From a virus (lineage: Duplodnaviria > Heunggongvirae > Uroviricota > Caudoviricetes), in IMG/VR virus record IMGVR_UViG_2778260992_000001: DNA of 64,000 bases. One strand, 5' to 3'. The first letter of the stretch is position 1. Every line of letters begins with the position of its first letter. Below are positions 56,480 to 64,000 of the stretch, in pieces. The translations under genes and the position numbers were made by a program. The notes under the pieces were generated by a model. It did not search any database and was not told the DNA's origin. It was given only the letters and a program-made list of their open reading frames with translations.

Positions 56480-57508
56480 ACCAGTATTAGTCACGTAAAC
56501 ATTGACCGAAAATGATTTAACTTCTGTGTTGAAGTTGTCAGTCATTACCGCGAGGTAGGCATTCTTGGTATCTCTGAATTGCTTCAGGATGATTTGAACG
56601 TTATCGGTGCAAACAAACGAGGTAGCCAGATTGCCTCCTTTCTCTGAAAAATCCTTTAGGAAAGTGCAGTCAATTTTGCCATCATTAGCGGTGAAGGTGG
56701 CATCATCACCCTGCCAGGTAAATGTTGCGTTAACGCCTTTATCAATGGATTTAGCAATAAGTCGTTGAGTGGAGGATTTTGCTTTAGATCTTGCTGCTGA
56801 TGGTTGGTATTTACCGCTTTCTTTTAGTTCTGCAATGTAATCACAGCCATTTTTATCTTCTTTATCGCAAGCTGCCTGATAAAGCTCAGCTGCTTTTTTA
56901 TAATCTTTTTTAACCCCTTCACCATACTCATACATAATGCCAAGATTCGCCAATGCAGATGCACTGCCTAGTTCGATTCCTTTTTTATAATACTCTATTG
57001 CCTTTTTGTAGCTTTTTGGCACGCCTGCGCCAACATAATATAACTGTCCTAAATATGACGCAGATTCAGGGTCGCCAGCCTCTACTGCAAGTTTGTGATA
57101 TTTCAGGGAAAGTTTTTGGTCTTTCTTACCCGCAAGTCCTTTATGATAAATAACACCCAGATTGTGATAAGAGTTGCCTCCAGCTGCATCACCAGCTTTC
57201 TTAAAGAGTTCCTCTGCCTTTTTGAAATTTTTATCAACCCCATACCCAAGGGCATACATTATACCTAGAGCATTAAACGCTTCTTTGTTCCCCTTAGAAG
57301 TCGCCAGTTCAAGCCATTTTCTGGCTTCATCGTAGTTTTTTTCGACACCATGAATACCTTTCATATAGTCGATACCTAAAGCACTCTGTGACTCAACGTC
57401 GCCTGCTTTTGCCGCATCGATCAGCTTTTGTATTTCATAGGCATGTGCACTCCCCGAAACAAGTAATAGCGACAACATAAAGAAAGATATTGGTTTGAAA
57501 TGTTTCAT
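56471..57508 (-). CDS. secreted Sel1-like repeat (SLR) protein
   Basis: Signal peptide MKHFKPISFFMLSLLLVSGSAHA; repeated A-x-x-LG-x-xY..G-x-GV..K/D..A-x-x-WY-like units; extra C-terminal domain. Confidence 0.7.
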   Translation of the reverse strand: MKHFKPISFFMLSLLLVSGSAHAYEIQKLIDAAKAGDVESQSALGIDYMKGIHGVEKNYDEARKWLELATSKGNKEAFNALGIMYALGYGVDKNFKKAEELFKKAGDAAGGNSYHNLGVIYHKGLAGKKDQKLSLKYHKLAVEAGDPESASYLGQLYYVGAGVPKSYKKAIEYYKKGIELGSASALANLGIMYEYGEGVKKDYKKAAELYQAACDKEDKNGCDYIAELKESGKYQPSAARSKAKSSTQRLIAKSIDKGVNATFTWQGDDATFTANDGKIDCTFLKDFSEKGGNLATSFVCTDNVQIILKQFRDTKNAYLAVMTDNFNTEVKSFSVNVYVTNTGSN

Positions 57509-59010: not shown

Positions 59011-60329
59011 AAAAGTTGATCGCACTTAAGCATAAGCTGGACGAAATGAAAGCTATGGGAACCAATGCAAAAAAAGAGGCATTGGCCAACATGGATGACT
59101 TTGAACAAAGCATGGTTTCATTGATGCTCAACCCTTTCATCCGTTTTGGGGTAAAGAAATACAAAGTGGCAGAGCCGCTTAGTGAGTCCGTCCCAAGTGA
59201 CGAAAAAGCCATTGATGTACTGAATAAGCTGGCCTCTCGCGAGCTGACGGGGAACGCAGCAATAGCTGCTGTTGAGTCTATCGTGGCGTCAATGTGCGCC
59301 GATGGGCAGGACGTGTTCCGTCGTTTCCTCTTAAAAGACCCGAAAGCGGGTGTTGGGATTAGCCTATGCAACAAGGTTTTTGAAAATCCCATTCCGAAAT
59401 TCGAGGTGCAGCTGGCGTCACCGTATAAAGAAAAAGGCGACAAATACCCCTTCAAGCCAAACCCTAAAGCAAAATGGCCGATGATTGGCAGCCTTAAGCT
59501 CGATGGTTTGCGAGTAATTTGCGAGGTTATTGTTGACGAAGAAGAGGTTAACTTCCTTTCTCGTACTGGTAATCCAATCACGTCTCTCGATCACCTAAAG
59601 CCAGCCATGCTCGAATTAGGCAAACTTTCAGGCCACAAACACATCTTCTTCGATGGTGAAGGCACAGCCGGTTCATTTAACCAGTCCGTATCTGCATTGC
59701 GCAAAAAGAACGTGCAGGCAATTGGCGCTATTTATCATGTTTTCGACTTCTTCCTACCGGAATGGCGAGCACAGGCTAAATCCAAAGAGTATGCAAAGAC
59801 ATGTATGAAGCTGAAAGAGCGCCTGGCTATGCTCGTGGCGTTGTTCAAAAACGATCGCAGTGAAGGCTACGCACAAGACATTCACCTGCATCCGTTCTAC
59901 ATCATCCATAGCCACGAAGACTTCATCGAACGCTTCATGAAACGCCTGGACGATAACGAAGAAGGGGAGATGGGCAAAGATCCGAACTCTGTTTACGAGT
60001 TTAAACGTACCCGCAGCTGGTGGAAGTTAAAAGACGAAGATTCAGAAGATGGTGAAATTATCGATTTTGAGCCGGGCGACCCGGACTCTGGTTTTGCCAA
60101 CACGCTTGGAAAAATTGTTATTCGTCTTGAAAACGGCGTCATCGTTCGTGCGAGCGGCATTAAGCATAAATATCTGGACGAGATCTGGAACAACAAAGAG
60201 AAGTACCGTGGTCGCATTGTCGAGGTTCATTGTCACGAGAAAACACCTGATGGCAGCTTACGCCACCCACGACTGAAATGGCCGCGTTGCTTACGCGATA
60301 CCGAAGATCGAATCGGAGATAAAGAATGA
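59007..60329 (+). CDS. ATP-dependent DNA ligase
   Basis: Adenylation motif I KLDGLR (Lys in KxDG) and downstream nucleotidyltransferase-like motifs; 440 aa. Confidence 0.8.
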   Translation: MKKLIALKHKLDEMKAMGTNAKKEALANMDDFEQSMVSLMLNPFIRFGVKKYKVAEPLSESVPSDEKAIDVLNKLASRELTGNAAIAAVESIVASMCADGQDVFRRFLLKDPKAGVGISLCNKVFENPIPKFEVQLASPYKEKGDKYPFKPNPKAKWPMIGSLKLDGLRVICEVIVDEEEVNFLSRTGNPITSLDHLKPAMLELGKLSGHKHIFFDGEGTAGSFNQSVSALRKKNVQAIGAIYHVFDFFLPEWRAQAKSKEYAKTCMKLKERLAMLVALFKNDRSEGYAQDIHLHPFYIIHSHEDFIERFMKRLDDNEEGEMGKDPNSVYEFKRTRSWWKLKDEDSEDGEIIDFEPGDPDSGFANTLGKIVIRLENGVIVRASGIKHKYLDEIWNNKEKYRGRIVEVHCHEKTPDGSLRHPRLKWPRCLRDTEDRIGDKE

Positions 60330-60541
60330 TCGTATTAAGTAAACGGGAGAAAGAAACGCTTCATGAAATTAGTAAGTGGCCGGAGTTCCCTGAGTACTGG
60401 AAGCCTAAAACGCGAGCTAAGTTAGAGCGTTTAGGGTTGGTTGCAAACGTTTCTGAAACGTGGTGCTCGGCCAACTACCAGTTAACTGATAAAGGGAAAT
60501 TATTGCTACAGCAATTAGTAGAATCAGGAGCCTTTAAATGA
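60326..60541 (+). CDS. hypothetical small protein
   Basis: Coupled start. Confidence 0.4.
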   Translation: MIVLSKREKETLHEISKWPEFPEYWKPKTRAKLERLGLVANVSETWCSANYQLTDKGKLLLQQLVESGAFK

Positions 60542-60977: not shown

Positions 60978-60986
60978 AAACATATC

Positions 60987-61008
60987 GATAAGTATTTACT
61001 TACTTATC
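60987..61008. promoter_or_regulatory. class-2 palindrome
   Basis: GATAAGTATTTACTTACTTATC (8-bp arms). Confidence 0.5.
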
Positions 61009-61152
61009 TTTTGTGTATAAGATGACTTTGTTTTCGTTGAGACGCGACTGTTTGAACTTAAATACAAGTGCAAACGAAGAAGTCTATCTGGCAGTAGCCT
61101 AATAAGCCAAACACCAGCGAGGTCAGTTTCCAGCCTCGTTACCGAAATGGGA

Positions 61153-61500
61153 CACACTGAGCGAGTGTGATTGCAGAACGCAGGAGGGAACATGAGTGTT
61201 CCCTCCGATGAAGTAACAGAATGGGCGGTCGGTATATTTTCAACTCCATATGACTCCCGGATTCTTAGCCACTGACCGCCCATCCTGTTACGTCATTTTG
61301 TTCAATTATGTCGTTTATACTGGGTTAAAAAGCGGCGACGTAGCCCGGCTGGTATGGTTAGCCAGCACACAACGTTGAGGCCATTACATTTTTATCAATT
61401 CTAAGGTTCTATTCACAGAGATACCGGCGAGCGTTGATATGTAACATGTTGGGCAAACATTCAATCGGAGTAGTGGCCTCAACGTTGTGAAGACAGGATT
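61153..61500 (+). ncRNA. candidate structured RNA region (strand and function unknown)
   Basis: Nested perfect stems at 61183-61206, 61215-61230/61274-61289 and 61368-61382/61475-61489 in an ORF-free stretch. Confidence 0.35.
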
Positions 61501-61753
61501 GTTGTGTAGGTTTAACCACTGTTGCCATTGGTGCCTGTTTTCACAACAAATGATTCCATACATCACATTATATAAATTACAAAGTAGGTGCTGTCCTCAG
61601 AAACATCATCTACTTAAAGATTTAGCCTTCTATTGAGCGAAGTCGAAAGCGTCTGGCACTAACGAAAAGTGCAAGTAGCGGTGCGTTTCCTGGCAGAAAC
61701 TAACACCGCCGCGATTGGCACTGTTGAGTAATAAATACTGTCAGTGCTGAATT

Positions 61754-61828
61754 GATGGTGTAGCTCAGCGGTAGAGCAGTTGGCTGTTAACCAACTGGTC
61801 GGTGGTTCGAATCCACCCACCATCGCCA
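61754..61828 (+). tRNA. tRNA-Asn (GUU)
   Basis: Manual cloverleaf: 7-bp acceptor GATGGTG/CACCATC, anticodon loop CTGTTAA, T-loop GGTTCGAATCC, 3' CCA; differs from E. coli tRNA-Asn. Confidence 0.8.
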
Positions 61829-61833
61829 ATTTA

Positions 61834-61920
61834 GGGGAGTTAGTCCGTAGAGGTAGCGGTGTAGACTGTAAATCTACTGTCATGGCGACTCGGGTGGTTC
61901 GACTCCATCACTCCCCACCA
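61834..61920 (+). tRNA. tRNA-Tyr (GUA), class II
   Basis: Acceptor GGGGAGT/ACTCCCC, anticodon stem-loop GTAGA-CTGTAAA-TCTAC, long variable arm, 3' CCA. Confidence 0.75.
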
Positions 61921-61924
61921 AATT

Positions 61925-62000
61925 GCCGGTTTAGCTCAGTTGGTAGAGCAGTCGCTTTGTAAGCGAATGGCCAGCGGTTCGAGTCCGTTAACCGGCACCA
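61925..62000 (+). tRNA. tRNA-Thr (UGU)
   Basis: Acceptor GCCGGTT/AACCGGC, D-arm GCTC..GAGC, anticodon loop TTTGTAA, T-loop TTCGAGT, CCA; one G-A mismatch at top of anticodon stem. Confidence 0.65.
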
Positions 62001-62224
62001 ATACAACGATAAGATCATTACGGTTAATCGTCGTTCATGTGCACAATGACTGGTCGAAAGGTAGTGATCTTACCGTTGTGGTGGATTCGCAGACTGATGC
62101 GATAGCTTTCTTGGATGTTAGGGAAATGCGGCCGCAAATCTTCCCTTTCGCGAGCGGTGATCGTCCGTAGTCCTAATTGGCTGCACCGTATGCCGGAGAT
62201 TCAGTACCGGCCACCACAACGGCC

Positions 62225-62311
62225 GGAGAGTAGGGAGCATGGTGCTCAAGCGGTCTTGAAAACCGTCCCATTGCGCAAGCGATGATGGTTCGATTCCATT
62301 ACTCTCCGCCA
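62225..62311 (+). tRNA. tRNA-Ser (UGA), class II (D-arm irregular)
   Basis: Acceptor GGAGAGT/ACTCTCC, anticodon stem-loop GCGGT-CTTGAAA-ACCGT, long variable arm, T-arm GATGG-TTCGATT-CCATT, CCA. Confidence 0.6.
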
Positions 62312-62313
62312 GA

Positions 62314-62391
62314 CACAGCGTTGAGCGGTTTGGCCTTTTAATCAACTCGATTAAGACTCCGCTAACATAAACCAGACCGCTCAACGCTGTG
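62314..62391. repeat. 16-bp perfect inverted repeat CACAGCGTTGAGCGGT / ACCGCTCAACGCTGTG
   Basis: Starts 3 nt after tRNA-Ser; arm sequence resembles the 61368/61475 inverted repeat. Confidence 0.7.
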
Positions 62392-62465: not shown

Positions 62466-62488
62466 AAAGGGGCTTCGGCCCCTTTTTT
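62466..62488. terminator. bidirectional rho-independent terminator GGGGC-TTCG-GCCCC plus T6
   Basis: Terminates rightward tRNA transcript; also lies just past stop of leftward gene 62504..63766. Confidence 0.8.
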
Positions 62489-62503: not shown

Positions 62504-63766
62504 TTACTTTACATAGTCGCCCAGTTTTAATATTTCGCGCTTATATTCTTTAACCATGCTACTGGATTCAGTATAAATTCGATTTAAAAGATTATCGCTA
62601 TCTTTATTCTCATTTATCTTAATGAGTGATAATTTAAATTCATAGTCATCAAATGCCACAATCAAATGGTGGCCTGGGATTATATCTTCGTCACTCTTGA
62701 AGTATATATCTTCAAGTATGTAATCTAGTTGATTATATTTTCTTTTCTCGATGTAATCTTCAGCCATAGCTATTACATCATTCCTGTCATTTAACCTGTT
62801 TTTTTCGGAAGGCACATCTTCGTAATGTTGCACGATTGAACAACCAATAAGGCGTGGGATGTAAACGTCAAAATGAGTAACTCTATCATTCGCGGTTTTA
62901 AGTAGTTCCTCAAAGTAGTTTCTTACATGTAAAGGCAACTTCTCAAAGTAATCATTAATTATAGGAGAACAAGGAGTTTTATAATTCATAAGAACCGACG
63001 GTACGAGCTTTGGGTTTCGAAACATCCAGTCCCTTTTAACGTCCGATGGAACATAATAACTTTTAATGATATTATCAAAATAATTTATCATTCGAGATTT
63101 GAATATTTTGTTGAATCTAAGGTTTATGAATGCATCCAGATAAGGCATATCTGAATAAGCATCATCAAAAAATATTTCATCATTGAAAAAATCATATTTA
63201 TTCAATAAACAACACAGTTTTCCCGAATTAATATGTTCACAATAATCGATTTTTAATCCAAAGATAGCAATGATCAACTTCATCTGAGGTGGGATTTTGA
63301 AAATTAATTGTGACACATACGCTCTTTTTTCCTTTAGACATTCCCCATCAATATAAAATGAACTATCCACATACTCAAAAATATTAATAATATGCTTCAC
63401 ATACTGTATTACCTCATGCTGTTTTACCAATGGGTAATATAGTCTATGTAACTCATCGCTGTTTAAATTAACTTTGCGTTTATCGATAATTTGTTTTGCA
63501 AGAAGACATAGCTCATCATGTTGATTTAATAAGGAATCAAACCATTGTTTAAATGCACTCTTTCGCATTTCGAACAATGATTCTGTTGTTAATTGAAGGG
63601 CTGAAAAAGCTGCTTTTGCACTTTTTCTCGCTTCGTAGGCATTCCATGCTGTTGCTATAAAAGCAAATGCTGTAGCCAATGTTCCAACAATTTGACCATT
63701 TAAAACAACCCAATCCCAAAAAATCACGGTGAGCAGTAGTATAATAATGAAAATTAAAAAAGGCAT
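62504..63766 (-). CDS. AT-rich membrane-anchored protein of unknown function (420 aa)
   Basis: Two N-terminal TM helices then about 340-aa soluble domain; very AT-rich codon usage unlike flanking DNA; no recombinase or NTPase motifs seen. Confidence 0.6.
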   Translation of the reverse strand: MPFLIFIIILLLTVIFWDWVVLNGQIVGTLATAFAFIATAWNAYEARKSAKAAFSALQLTTESLFEMRKSAFKQWFDSLLNQHDELCLLAKQIIDKRKVNLNSDELHRLYYPLVKQHEVIQYVKHIINIFEYVDSSFYIDGECLKEKRAYVSQLIFKIPPQMKLIIAIFGLKIDYCEHINSGKLCCLLNKYDFFNDEIFFDDAYSDMPYLDAFINLRFNKIFKSRMINYFDNIIKSYYVPSDVKRDWMFRNPKLVPSVLMNYKTPCSPIINDYFEKLPLHVRNYFEELLKTANDRVTHFDVYIPRLIGCSIVQHYEDVPSEKNRLNDRNDVIAMAEDYIEKRKYNQLDYILEDIYFKSDEDIIPGHHLIVAFDDYEFKLSLIKINENKDSDNLLNRIYTESSSMVKEYKREILKLGDYVK

Positions 63767-64000
63767 GTATGTATTTCACTCTACTAACTATAAAATATTA
63801 GGGTAATGTTAACCAAACAATGCCTTAATTAATAGATTGATCGAGGCTTTAATAGCTTTATAATGCAGACTGCAATGATAAGTATGCACATACCTATCTT
63901 CTTTGTAAGTAAAGTTGCATATCGGGGGTCTACGCCGGAACCGCCGAAATTTCCGGCCTGTGATTTTTAGTGGTCCTTCGGTACTTCAATAACTCCATCA

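Follow-up and report, generated by a model that had tools for sequence, protein, structure and literature searches.

The gene discussed here lies on the minus strand close to the end of a 64,000-nucleotide stretch of viral DNA (IMG/VR record IMGVR_UViG_2778260992_000001; Caudoviricetes), hereafter called the window, which belongs to an SSU5-type phage-plasmid of Escherichia coli. In our view, the most probable reading, to which we would give a chance of roughly 60%, is that the gene encodes a single-protein, membrane-anchored abortive-infection (Abi) protein of the AbiC/P family, that it forms an autonomous antisense cassette in a hotspot for defence cargo, and that one half of the protein would sense an infecting phage while the other would act as the effector. 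That the gene serves anti-phage defence of some kind, with abortive-infection and exclusion variants taken jointly, appears considerably more probable still. A single-gene abortive-infection or exclusion function had already been proposed in the original prediction, which was made from the nucleotide sequence alone, and this interpretation has gained support because three independent lines point in the same direction, namely (i) the remote homology to putAbiC, AbiC and AbiP, (ii) the accessory distribution of the gene, and (iii) the defence genes that occupy the same slot in sister elements.

Homology to the putAbiC, AbiC and AbiP families

The gene has the position, strand and length originally predicted: the listing of open reading frames (ORFs) of the window contains, at 62504-63766 on the minus strand, a single ORF with an ATG start that encodes 420 amino acids (aa), no plus-strand ORF of at least 40 aa inside this interval, and only two short minus-strand ORFs in alternative frames (40 and 76 aa) that overlap it. 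The only PHROG match of the protein is phrog_18168 (E 2.5e-214), which bears the function label 'unknown function', and a sequence search with the window protein in a collection of 5.8 billion proteins returned seven clusters only. A profile built from the sequences of those seven clusters (A1) found 67 relatives at E <= 0.001 among 1.84 billion cluster representatives, and nearly all of these are 415-495 aa long, match from the N-terminus onward and have the same layout.

It is through these relatives that the profile search proposed in the original prediction led to the putAbiC/AbiC/AbiP family. PF16872 ('putAbiC, putative phage abortive infection protein'; curated cutoff 22 bits) is matched by 39 of the 51 full-length members, and among the 20 members scanned individually P0024, P0028, P0033, P0038, P0047 and P0058 score 32-38 bits, while P0009 lies at the cutoff with 22.0 bits. 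The allele P0007, which resides in the same slot as the window gene and is 31% identical to the window protein, reaches 18.0 bits, and the allele P0005 gives no PF16872 match; the putAbiC profile covers residues 131-212 of P0007 and 135-219 of P0028. The PADLOC models of AbiC and AbiP match 8/51 and 5/51 members, with best E values of 1.3e-6 and 1.1e-4, respectively. In the opposite direction, A1 retrieves PF16872-positive proteins at E 1e-36 to 1e-7, and the alignment of the close clade (A1) with the distant branch (A3; 13 members, nine of them shown to be putAbiC-positive) by hhalign has a probability of 99.95% and an E value of 1.5e-37 over 354 columns, so that the relationship spans almost the whole protein and extends beyond the 80-residue Pfam core. 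The distant branch, which is found in Cedecea, Pectobacterium, Citrobacter, Dickeya, Klebsiella, Yersinia, Rahnella, Kosakonia, Providencia and others, carries the NCBI name 'putative phage abortive infection protein', whereas the clade of the window protein is named 'hypothetical protein'. Judged by these profile comparisons, the window protein belongs to a divergent branch of the AbiC/P family that has so far gone unannotated. Several truncated forms are also present in the databases.

Other assignments were considered and rejected. The window protein has no match to SLATT or other two-transmembrane (2TM) effectors, and a SLATT-like 2TM effector was dismissed since the matches of relatives are sub-threshold only (SLATT_1, E 0.23 on P0008; CyanoTRADDas_TM, E 0.22 on P0047). 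A lipase match of the 51-member profile in the PDB sequences (E 0.006), which falls into the variable C-terminal part, came without supporting evidence and was regarded as chance. The Abi_C domain, i.e. the HEPN domain of AbiJ/SadR, represents a name collision and not a relative, as neither the window protein nor the family members show such a match. As a separate observation, P0047 (putAbiC-positive; Cedecea/Enterobacter chromosome, locus L022) is also matched by the PADLOC model PD-T4-4_B (E 3.6e-4), with an alignment that takes in almost all of the 206 profile positions, which raises the possibility of a kinship between component B of the PD-T4-4 system and the AbiC/P family.

Protein architecture and conservation

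The two N-terminal transmembrane (TM) helices that had been predicted are borne out by hydropathy, with Kyte-Doolittle means over 19 residues of 2.83 at residues 4-22 and 1.73 at residues 20-38 and a maximum of 1.32 in windows that start beyond residue 60, as well as by the helices of the AlphaFold model (2-15, 17-22 and 24-97). Positive charges are located just after TM2 (R47, K48 and K51), none are present in the TM1-TM2 loop (WDWVVLNGQ), and the remaining domain of ~375 residues should therefore face the cytoplasm according to the positive-inside rule. The model, for which the 51-sequence alignment served as input, has a mean predicted local distance difference test (pLDDT) score of 91.6 and a predicted template modelling (pTM) score of 0.79, with most of the C-terminal half above 90; a run with 7 sequences gave a pLDDT of 62 and was not used. 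In this model, the second helix runs unbroken into a stalk of ~55 residues that ends at residue 97, and a helical core (residues 106-235) is followed by a C-terminal region of helices with a small three-stranded alpha/beta element at ~300-400. Hydropathy and model hence agree on an N-terminal TM anchor that is followed by a helical non-membrane domain.

Conservation differs strongly along the chain. Windows within residues 21-200 carry 1.6-2.6 bits per column, with 1.9-2.3 bits in the stalk region (codons 44-100) and the most conserved 20-residue windows (up to 2.6 bits) in the helical core, compared with 1.25 bits for residues 1-20 and 0.8-1.4 bits for residues 201-420. Between slot alleles, TM2, stalk and core are 38-75% identical, whereas residues 201-420 share 12-24% identity in allele pairs, the exception being the pair of the window and P0005 with about 50%. 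The block ATAWNAYEARKSAKAA (A38-A53, of which residues 38-43 lie in TM2) is invariant in A1, including the member that is only 31% identical overall, and has the consensus ATAWAAxEARxSAxAA across the 51 members. Within TM2, T32, A35, F36 and A38-A40 are invariant in A1 and the 51-member consensus reads AFxATAW; an LLxQH motif follows the block, and its H83 is near-invariant across the 51 members.

The only residues invariant in all 51 members are Y122, F193 and F194, and no conserved constellation of polar residues was found across the family. Given that the invariants are aromatic, and as such not typical catalytic residues, and that a polar constellation is missing, the protein would rather appear to sense, to scaffold or to act on the membrane than to be an enzyme. 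The original prediction, for its part, had recognised no integrase, NTPase or nuclease motif, which fits the lack of significant database matches considered in the Discussion. It had further taken the large soluble domain as the effector, and this idea has to be modified: the pattern of conservation suggests that the membrane-proximal half is the fixed functional module and that the C-terminal half is variable, and not that the whole domain acts as one fixed module.

Distribution and occupants of the slot

The best match of the window is plasmid pG749_2 (NZ_CP014490, 109,910 bp, circular), which is 99.9% identical over the gene region, and Cyrano, CMS-2020a and SSU5 are related phage records. 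With the ligase gene as marker, the backbone was detected, exclusively on plasmids, in 241 complete E. coli genomes out of 5,426, and 39 of these 241 backbones carry the gene, each time inside a phage-plasmid. It is also present in 37 PLSDB plasmids, and 37-39 complete plasmids retain an uninterrupted 420-aa frame, with DNA identities of 98-99.9%. Searches of 50,697 deposited phage genomes at the DNA and the protein level did not find the gene in any of them, and a scan of 185,579 species-representative genomes with the A1 profile gave no close relative. DNA similarity to Cyrano and CMS-2020a ends at ~62,491, which is the gene boundary. The comparison with related elements that the original prediction had called for thus identifies the gene as accessory. 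A conserved chromosomal context without the phage, which had been named as an observation that would speak to the contrary, was not found, as a 617-kb contig among the records of the protein cluster has the gene embedded in a complete SSU5-type backbone.

The interval between tRNA-Ser and grxA, here referred to as the slot, contains different cargo in sister elements. Its commonest occupant is a small gene of the Gp49 family that is co-oriented with grxA (77/241 genomes), and in 19/241 genomes the slot holds an antisense pair in which an AbiGi protein (PADLOC E 6e-47) has a partner of 403 aa. In another backbone, a 184-aa protein occurs together with one of 262 aa that is matched, at E 6e-25, by the PADLOC models for an endonuclease effector and for the candidate PDC-M68A, and other backbones harbour strongly diverged alleles of the gene's own family. 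The gene is hence variably present among near-identical elements in a place where recognised defence genes are alternative occupants. We therefore regard the slot as a hotspot for cargo, with several but not exclusively recognisable defence genes among its occupants, and the typical cargo position that had been assigned to the gene agrees with the AbiGi system and the nuclease-type candidate at the same site.

A split form of the gene is found in E. coli C6 plasmid p1 (NZ_CP195946.1; L010 10498-10983), whose ligase is 100% identical to that of the window. The gene is annotated there as two ORFs of 161 and 201 aa, the latter of which runs across the record origin, and it represents either a frameshifted pseudogene or a sequencing error.

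Evolution and base composition

Six same-slot alleles share 28-92% protein identity, and the five diverged alleles in the slot share 29-54% aa identity, while the flanking backbone DNA is 94-99% identical in the loci compared (P0005 and P0007 types); the P0007 allele shows no detectable DNA similarity inside the slot. Where synonymous sites are unsaturated, the ratio of nonsynonymous to synonymous substitution rates (dN/dS) is 0.21-0.46, and the gene is therefore maintained by purifying selection. Values against the closest allele are 0.19-0.37, and a value of 0.21 was obtained at 54% identity. In the comparison with this closest allele, from plasmid MARGA_4 (L016 2560-3822; 92% aa identity), dN/dS is 0.19 in the N-terminal and 1.06 in the C-terminal half, and dS is 0.177 in codons 1-200 as opposed to 0.040 in codons 201-420. 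The difference in dS between the halves points to intragenic recombination, and the gene is probably a mosaic that arose from recombination within it. Positive selection is not claimed because the substitution counts are small.

The AT-richness noted in the original prediction is pronounced, with a G+C content (GC) of 0.319 for the gene, and of 0.292 at third codon positions (GC3), compared to 0.462 for the whole window; in sliding windows, GC is 0.45-0.52 in the tRNA region and drops to 0.30-0.33 within the gene. All six diverged alleles that were examined have a GC of 0.31-0.33, and the chromosomal relatives, which often form single-gene islets, are AT-rich compared to their surroundings as well (e.g. 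0.34 vs 0.57). The low GC is therefore a persistent trait of the family and not a sign of recent import. Of the 'foreign composition' that had been postulated, the low GC itself hence stands, but not the recent import that it might seem to indicate. Likewise, the gene is not a one-off foreign insertion, as its family is a long-term and fast-evolving resident of the slot across SSU5-type elements.

Genomic surroundings

As predicted, the gene sits at the edge of the tRNA region, where the genes for tRNA-Asn, Tyr, Thr and Ser (61754-62311, plus strand) are located, and just past a terminator. The latter is a stem-loop, AAAGGGGC-TTCG-GCCCCTTT, with an 8-bp stem of which 5 are GC pairs, at a distance of 18 nt from the stop codon of the gene (Table 1). 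The terminator scan called it on the plus strand only, and the minus strand has a GAATTTTG T-tract after the stem, read directly from the sequence. The terminator had originally been described as bidirectional, which holds for the plus strand by the call; for the gene's own direction it is plausible but weaker.

A candidate promoter for the gene was read by eye on the minus strand (TTGGTT at 63816-63811, an 18-nt spacer, and TATAGT at 63792-63787). It is below the threshold of the promoter scan and has 3/6 matches in its -35 hexamer, and the gene may possess a promoter of its own at 63816-63787. A promoter-like site for grxA was detected by the scan at 63837-63864 on the plus strand, with the start of grxA at ~63941 (from the L001 coordinates). 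The gene runs antisense to its neighbours between an intergenic region of its own and the terminator, and the placement therefore makes it a self-contained cassette. No conserved adjacent partner was found: in the window, as in L001, L016 and L034-L037, terminator and grxA enclose this gene and no other; an extra 184-aa neighbour, which gives no PADLOC match, occurs only beside the P0005 allele. A toxin-antitoxin or two-gene Abi system was rejected on account of the missing conserved partner, and an associated RNA was rejected since the Rfam matches are tRNAs only, none of them beside the gene.

Ligase, primase and DnaB genes are located upstream, and the element continues past the end of the window with grxA, a tyrosine recombinase, a helix-turn-helix (HTH) regulator, a CobT-like protein, AAA proteins and DnaE.

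Table 1. Positions of the gene, its codon segments and its borders in the window.
Feature	Position	Strand	Basis
Coding sequence, AbiC/P-like (putAbiC-related) membrane-anchored 420-aa protein (predicted)	62504..63766	-	ORF, profile searches and PHROG 18168
Codons 2-43, two-helix membrane hairpin (TM1 ~2-22, TM2 ~24-43)	63638..63763	-	Hydropathy and AlphaFold
Codons 44-100, juxtamembrane and stalk helix, with Y44-A53 of the invariant block A38-A53 (ATAWNAYEARKSAKAA) and LLxQH (H83)	63467..63637	-	
Codons 101-200, helical core equivalent to PF16872 putAbiC (family invariants Y122, F193, F194)	63167..63466	-	
Codons 201-420, hypervariable C-terminal half, proposed specificity or sensor module	62507..63166	-	
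G+C-rich stem-loop terminator between tRNA cluster and stop codon of the gene	62466..62485	.	Terminator scan
Divergent intergenic region, gene / grxA	63767..63940	.	

Several further observations concern the neighbourhood. Immediately 3' of tRNA-Ser, a 20-nt inverted repeat (62314-62333 / 62372-62391; 95% complementary, 38-nt spacer) belongs to the conserved backbone and lies outside the variable slot; conceivable roles are those of a processing or terminator structure, or of a recombination site at the hotspot's edge. The tRNA cluster itself varies among backbones, with Asn-Tyr-Thr-Ser in the window and tRNA-Tyr absent from phage Cyrano and plasmid MARGA_4 (L002 5665-5912; L016 4016-4619). 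In P0007-type backbones (L003-L006), identity is only ~83% between tRNA-Thr and a point shortly after tRNA-Ser, as opposed to 94-98% for the flanks. Upstream of tRNA-Asn, ~770 bp (60978-61753) contain no ORF of at least 96 aa on either strand, no tRNA and no Rfam match, and this stretch is kept in relatives; a regulatory region, an origin or an uncharacterised RNA are possible. Directly after the ligase gene, a 71-aa ORF (60326-60541) is a candidate for 'aplA, after-plasmid-ligase protein AplA', a RefSeq name given in some sister plasmids to a gene that overlaps or adjoins the ligase gene.

In the replication module, an antisense gene with TPR/Sel1 repeats is located between primase and a 260-aa gene (~56500-57500, minus strand). 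Its length in other backbones is 320-417 aa (L003 15052-16197, L010 4465-5502, L034 17053-18249), it is absent in L005 and L035, its region in the window has a lower GC of 0.39-0.42, and its position may be a further site for variable cargo. A second variable slot, which is empty in the window-type plasmid, lies just past the end of the window between grxA and the tyrosine recombinase (L001 6720-6932, L002 6727-7734, L003 6276-7574, L011 13079-14470, L018 508-4673). Elsewhere it contains a 184-aa hypothetical protein, a 307-aa hypothetical protein, a YafO-toxin gene with a 202-aa partner, or two YafO pairs together with a microcin-like gene; the proteins of this slot that were scanned gave no PADLOC match.

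Discussion

If the window protein is indeed an AbiC/P-type abortive-infection protein, the question arises how it could act. One can imagine that, in the lysogen, a promoter of the gene's own drives synthesis of the protein and that the two-helix hairpin holds it in the inner membrane, with the rest of the chain in the cytoplasm. The hypervariable residues 201-420 would then recognise a component of the infecting phage, either a structural protein, as is the case for AbiP, or nucleic acid, and the conserved N-terminal module (TM2, juxtamembrane helix and putAbiC core) would carry out the response. This response would most likely be a loss of membrane integrity or membrane potential, or a block of late phage protein production, and the aborted infection would protect the clonal host population of the phage-plasmid. 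Every step beyond a family member in a defence hotspot is something that we infer. One could go further and regard the AbiC/P-like genes of the slot as a natural allelic series of modular single-chain immune receptors, in which a fixed membrane-effector module (2TM hairpin, ATAWNAYEARKSAKAA helix and putAbiC core) is combined with a C-terminal sensor that diversifies and is swapped rapidly, so that each allele would recognise a different phage structural protein and intragenic recombination between phage-plasmids would reshuffle the specificities. We offer this extended model tentatively, as an idea that is more likely to fail than to hold in this form.

A number of observations weigh against an abortive-infection protein of the AbiC/P type. 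Searches of Pfam, PADLOC, NCBIfam and the PDB sequences with the window protein itself gave nothing significant (E <= 0.01), its best Pfam match being PF03899 (ATP-synt_I; E 0.34) and its best PDB chain, for the single sequence, EBP2 at the chance level of E 2. It does not match PF16872 even at E <= 10, and does hence not belong to that family by its own score; the family link is transitive and runs through intermediate sequences. The PADLOC matches to AbiC and AbiP are modest (E 1e-6 to 1e-3), cover the core only and were obtained on these intermediates, and the comparison with the lactococcal AbiC and AbiP was made solely through hidden Markov models (HMMs) built from those families. Polar residues of the putAbiC-positive branch (R140, H144 and K147 in A3) correspond to K124, N128 and E131 in the clade of the window protein, the function of which may differ if these positions matter. 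The structure search with the AlphaFold model found no structural neighbour, and thus none that would support an activity. The dN/dS of about 1 in the C-terminal half rests on few substitutions, and the differing dS of the two halves speaks for recombination no less than for positive selection. The neighbourhoods of the distant chromosomal relatives are mixed and not clearly defence islands, with a methylase and serine recombinases, acyltransferases, an HD protein and a pentapeptide/ion-channel protein among the neighbours. In addition, the Gp49-family occupant (77/241) has no defence annotation and about 100 of the 241 backbones are unclassified with respect to the slot, which therefore has to be seen as a cargo hotspot that is not exclusively dedicated to defence. 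Lastly, AbiC and AbiP are themselves without a known mechanism and reportedly differ from each other, so that to work 'like AbiC/P' predicts little.

Among the alternatives, superinfection exclusion survives best, although we consider it unlikely. In this case, DNA entry or an early envelope step would be blocked at the inner membrane without killing of the cell, and the variable C-terminal half would determine which phages are excluded. T4 Imm and HK97 gp15 are models for such exclusion. The membrane anchor, the prophage-borne autonomous antisense cassette and the accessory distribution with its rapid diversification would all suit an exclusion protein, and the mechanism of the family is not known, 'Abi' being a historical label. 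However, the positive-inside rule places the domain of 375 residues in the cytoplasm, and the characterised relatives act after entry: phage DNA enters and is transcribed in the presence of PdpSau, AbiP affects replication and the early-to-late transcription switch, and AbiC the production of capsid protein.

Slightly less probable again is that the gene serves the life cycle of the phage-plasmid itself or the competition between mobile elements, for instance as a membrane-associated factor in plasmid-prophage maintenance, in the timing of lysis, or in the exclusion of related phage-plasmids or conjugative plasmids. The close clade is confined to SSU5-type backbones, where it occupies one fixed slot beside the replication genes, the scan of the species-representative genomes found no close relative, and the commonest occupant of the slot is small, lacks a defence annotation and is co-oriented with grxA. 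On the other hand, about 84% of the backbones, otherwise almost the same, lack the gene, so that the element can do without it, sister elements have recognised defence genes in its place, its chromosomal relatives are single-gene AT-rich islets away from phage-plasmids, and the family homology is to Abi proteins.

That the gene is a decaying or functionless remnant, i.e. an acquired AT-rich ORF that is silenced (e.g. by H-NS), can be considered highly improbable, since the very low GC, the lack of a strong promoter match on its strand, the split into two ORFs in one sister plasmid and the truncated forms in the databases have to be set against the frame kept intact in 37-39 complete plasmids, the low dN/dS both against the closest allele and at 54% identity, invariant motifs that persist in alleles 31% identical, and a confident AlphaFold model.

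We thus prefer the reading of a single-protein Abi system, and the locus brings a relative of AbiC and AbiP into E. coli on a well-defined phage-plasmid. It further comes with a natural allelic series that shows a clear split into conserved and variable parts, and this series constitutes material for the mapping of sensor and effector with chimeras and escape mutants. If the receptors are indeed modular, the first tractable E. coli model of phage sensing and cell killing or arrest by AbiC/P proteins would be at hand. The gene has no match in Pfam or PADLOC, and a 2025 DefenseFinder survey of 1,227 SSU5-type phage-plasmid contigs reported AbiH, PrrC, PD-T4-3, PD-T7-5 and restriction-modification systems and nothing AbiC-like. 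It is hence likely that too few defence genes have so far been credited to SSU5-type phage-plasmids, a group frequently met in clinical E. coli, Shigella and Salmonella. To a specialist, an Abi gene in a prophage hotspot will be a sensible extension and no surprise, while the mechanism of the family has been open for three decades.

Comparison with known systems

AbiC was described in 1992 and AbiP in 2004, and a 2026 review gives neither a molecular mechanism nor an informative structural neighbour for them (PMC13064643). The same review places the two together as 'AbiC/P' for structural reasons and reports differences between them (PMC13064643). Our literature searches found no paper that names putAbiC or PF16872, and no experimental paper on PF16872 proteins from Gram-negative bacteria. 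The similarly named Abi_C domain is a cytoplasmic RNase of the HEPN type that carries the motif R-phi-X(3-5)-H (PMC13590631), and these AbiJ/SadR domains share with the window protein only the name and the label 'abortive infection'.

AbiC has two TM helices and lowers the production of the phage major capsid protein, whereas DNA replication is unaffected (PMC13064643). Like AbiC (Prf; plasmid pTN20), the window protein is the product of a single gene on a mobile element, with two N-terminal TM helices ahead of a helical non-membrane domain, and its residues 101-200 align to the putAbiC profile (PF16872) through intermediates; neither protein has a recognisable enzymatic motif or a structural neighbour, as stated by the authors of the review for AbiC and found here for the window protein. 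It differs from AbiC in that it does not reach the AbiC models of Pfam or PADLOC directly, and in having ~220 residues after the core, compared to ~74 of the 306 positions of the PADLOC AbiC profile that follow the matched core, which makes its variable C-terminal region much the larger one. Moreover, AbiC comes from a lactococcal plasmid and the window gene from a Gram-negative phage-plasmid, and the activity of the window protein is a predicted one.

AbiP, in turn, has one TM helix, binds RNA in preference to single-stranded DNA, acts on replication and disturbs the early-to-late transcription switch, and its nucleic-acid-binding and TM domains are both apparently essential (PMC13064643). 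Its toxicity is triggered by the phage major tail protein, to which escape mutations map (PMC12184496). PdpSau, a membrane-embedded and structurally AbiP-like prophage protein of S. aureus, has been described to affect membrane potential and permeability in infected cells, and the first dead cells are seen within 10 minutes of Kayvirus infection, although phage DNA enters and is transcribed (PMC10127798). The window protein resembles both as a membrane-anchored single-protein Abi candidate, with the AbiP model of PADLOC matching 5/51 family members, and resembles PdpSau in being prophage-encoded, a link that is by analogy only. In contrast, AbiP and PdpSau have a single TM helix and are shorter (278 aa for PdpSau, 223 profile positions for AbiP), and Pfam and structure searches gave no OB-fold or nucleic-acid-binding similarity for the window protein. 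Taken jointly, AbiP and PdpSau supply the precedents on which the proposed model draws, namely a trigger in the form of a phage structural protein, nucleic-acid binding and membrane depolarisation.

A further comparison can be made with the chromosomal 'putative phage abortive infection proteins' of Enterobacterales (e.g. Cedecea, Pectobacterium, Klebsiella, Yersinia, Proteus). These are 13-23% identical to the window protein, are encoded on chromosomes, often as single-gene islets, and contain SPYMRxLYHLLK where the clade of the window protein has IQYVKHIINIFEY. They share with it, however, a length of 415-495 aa and the strongly AT-rich composition, as well as the two TM helices, the motifs ATAWxAxEARxSA and LLxQH, the putAbiC core and the variable C-terminal half.

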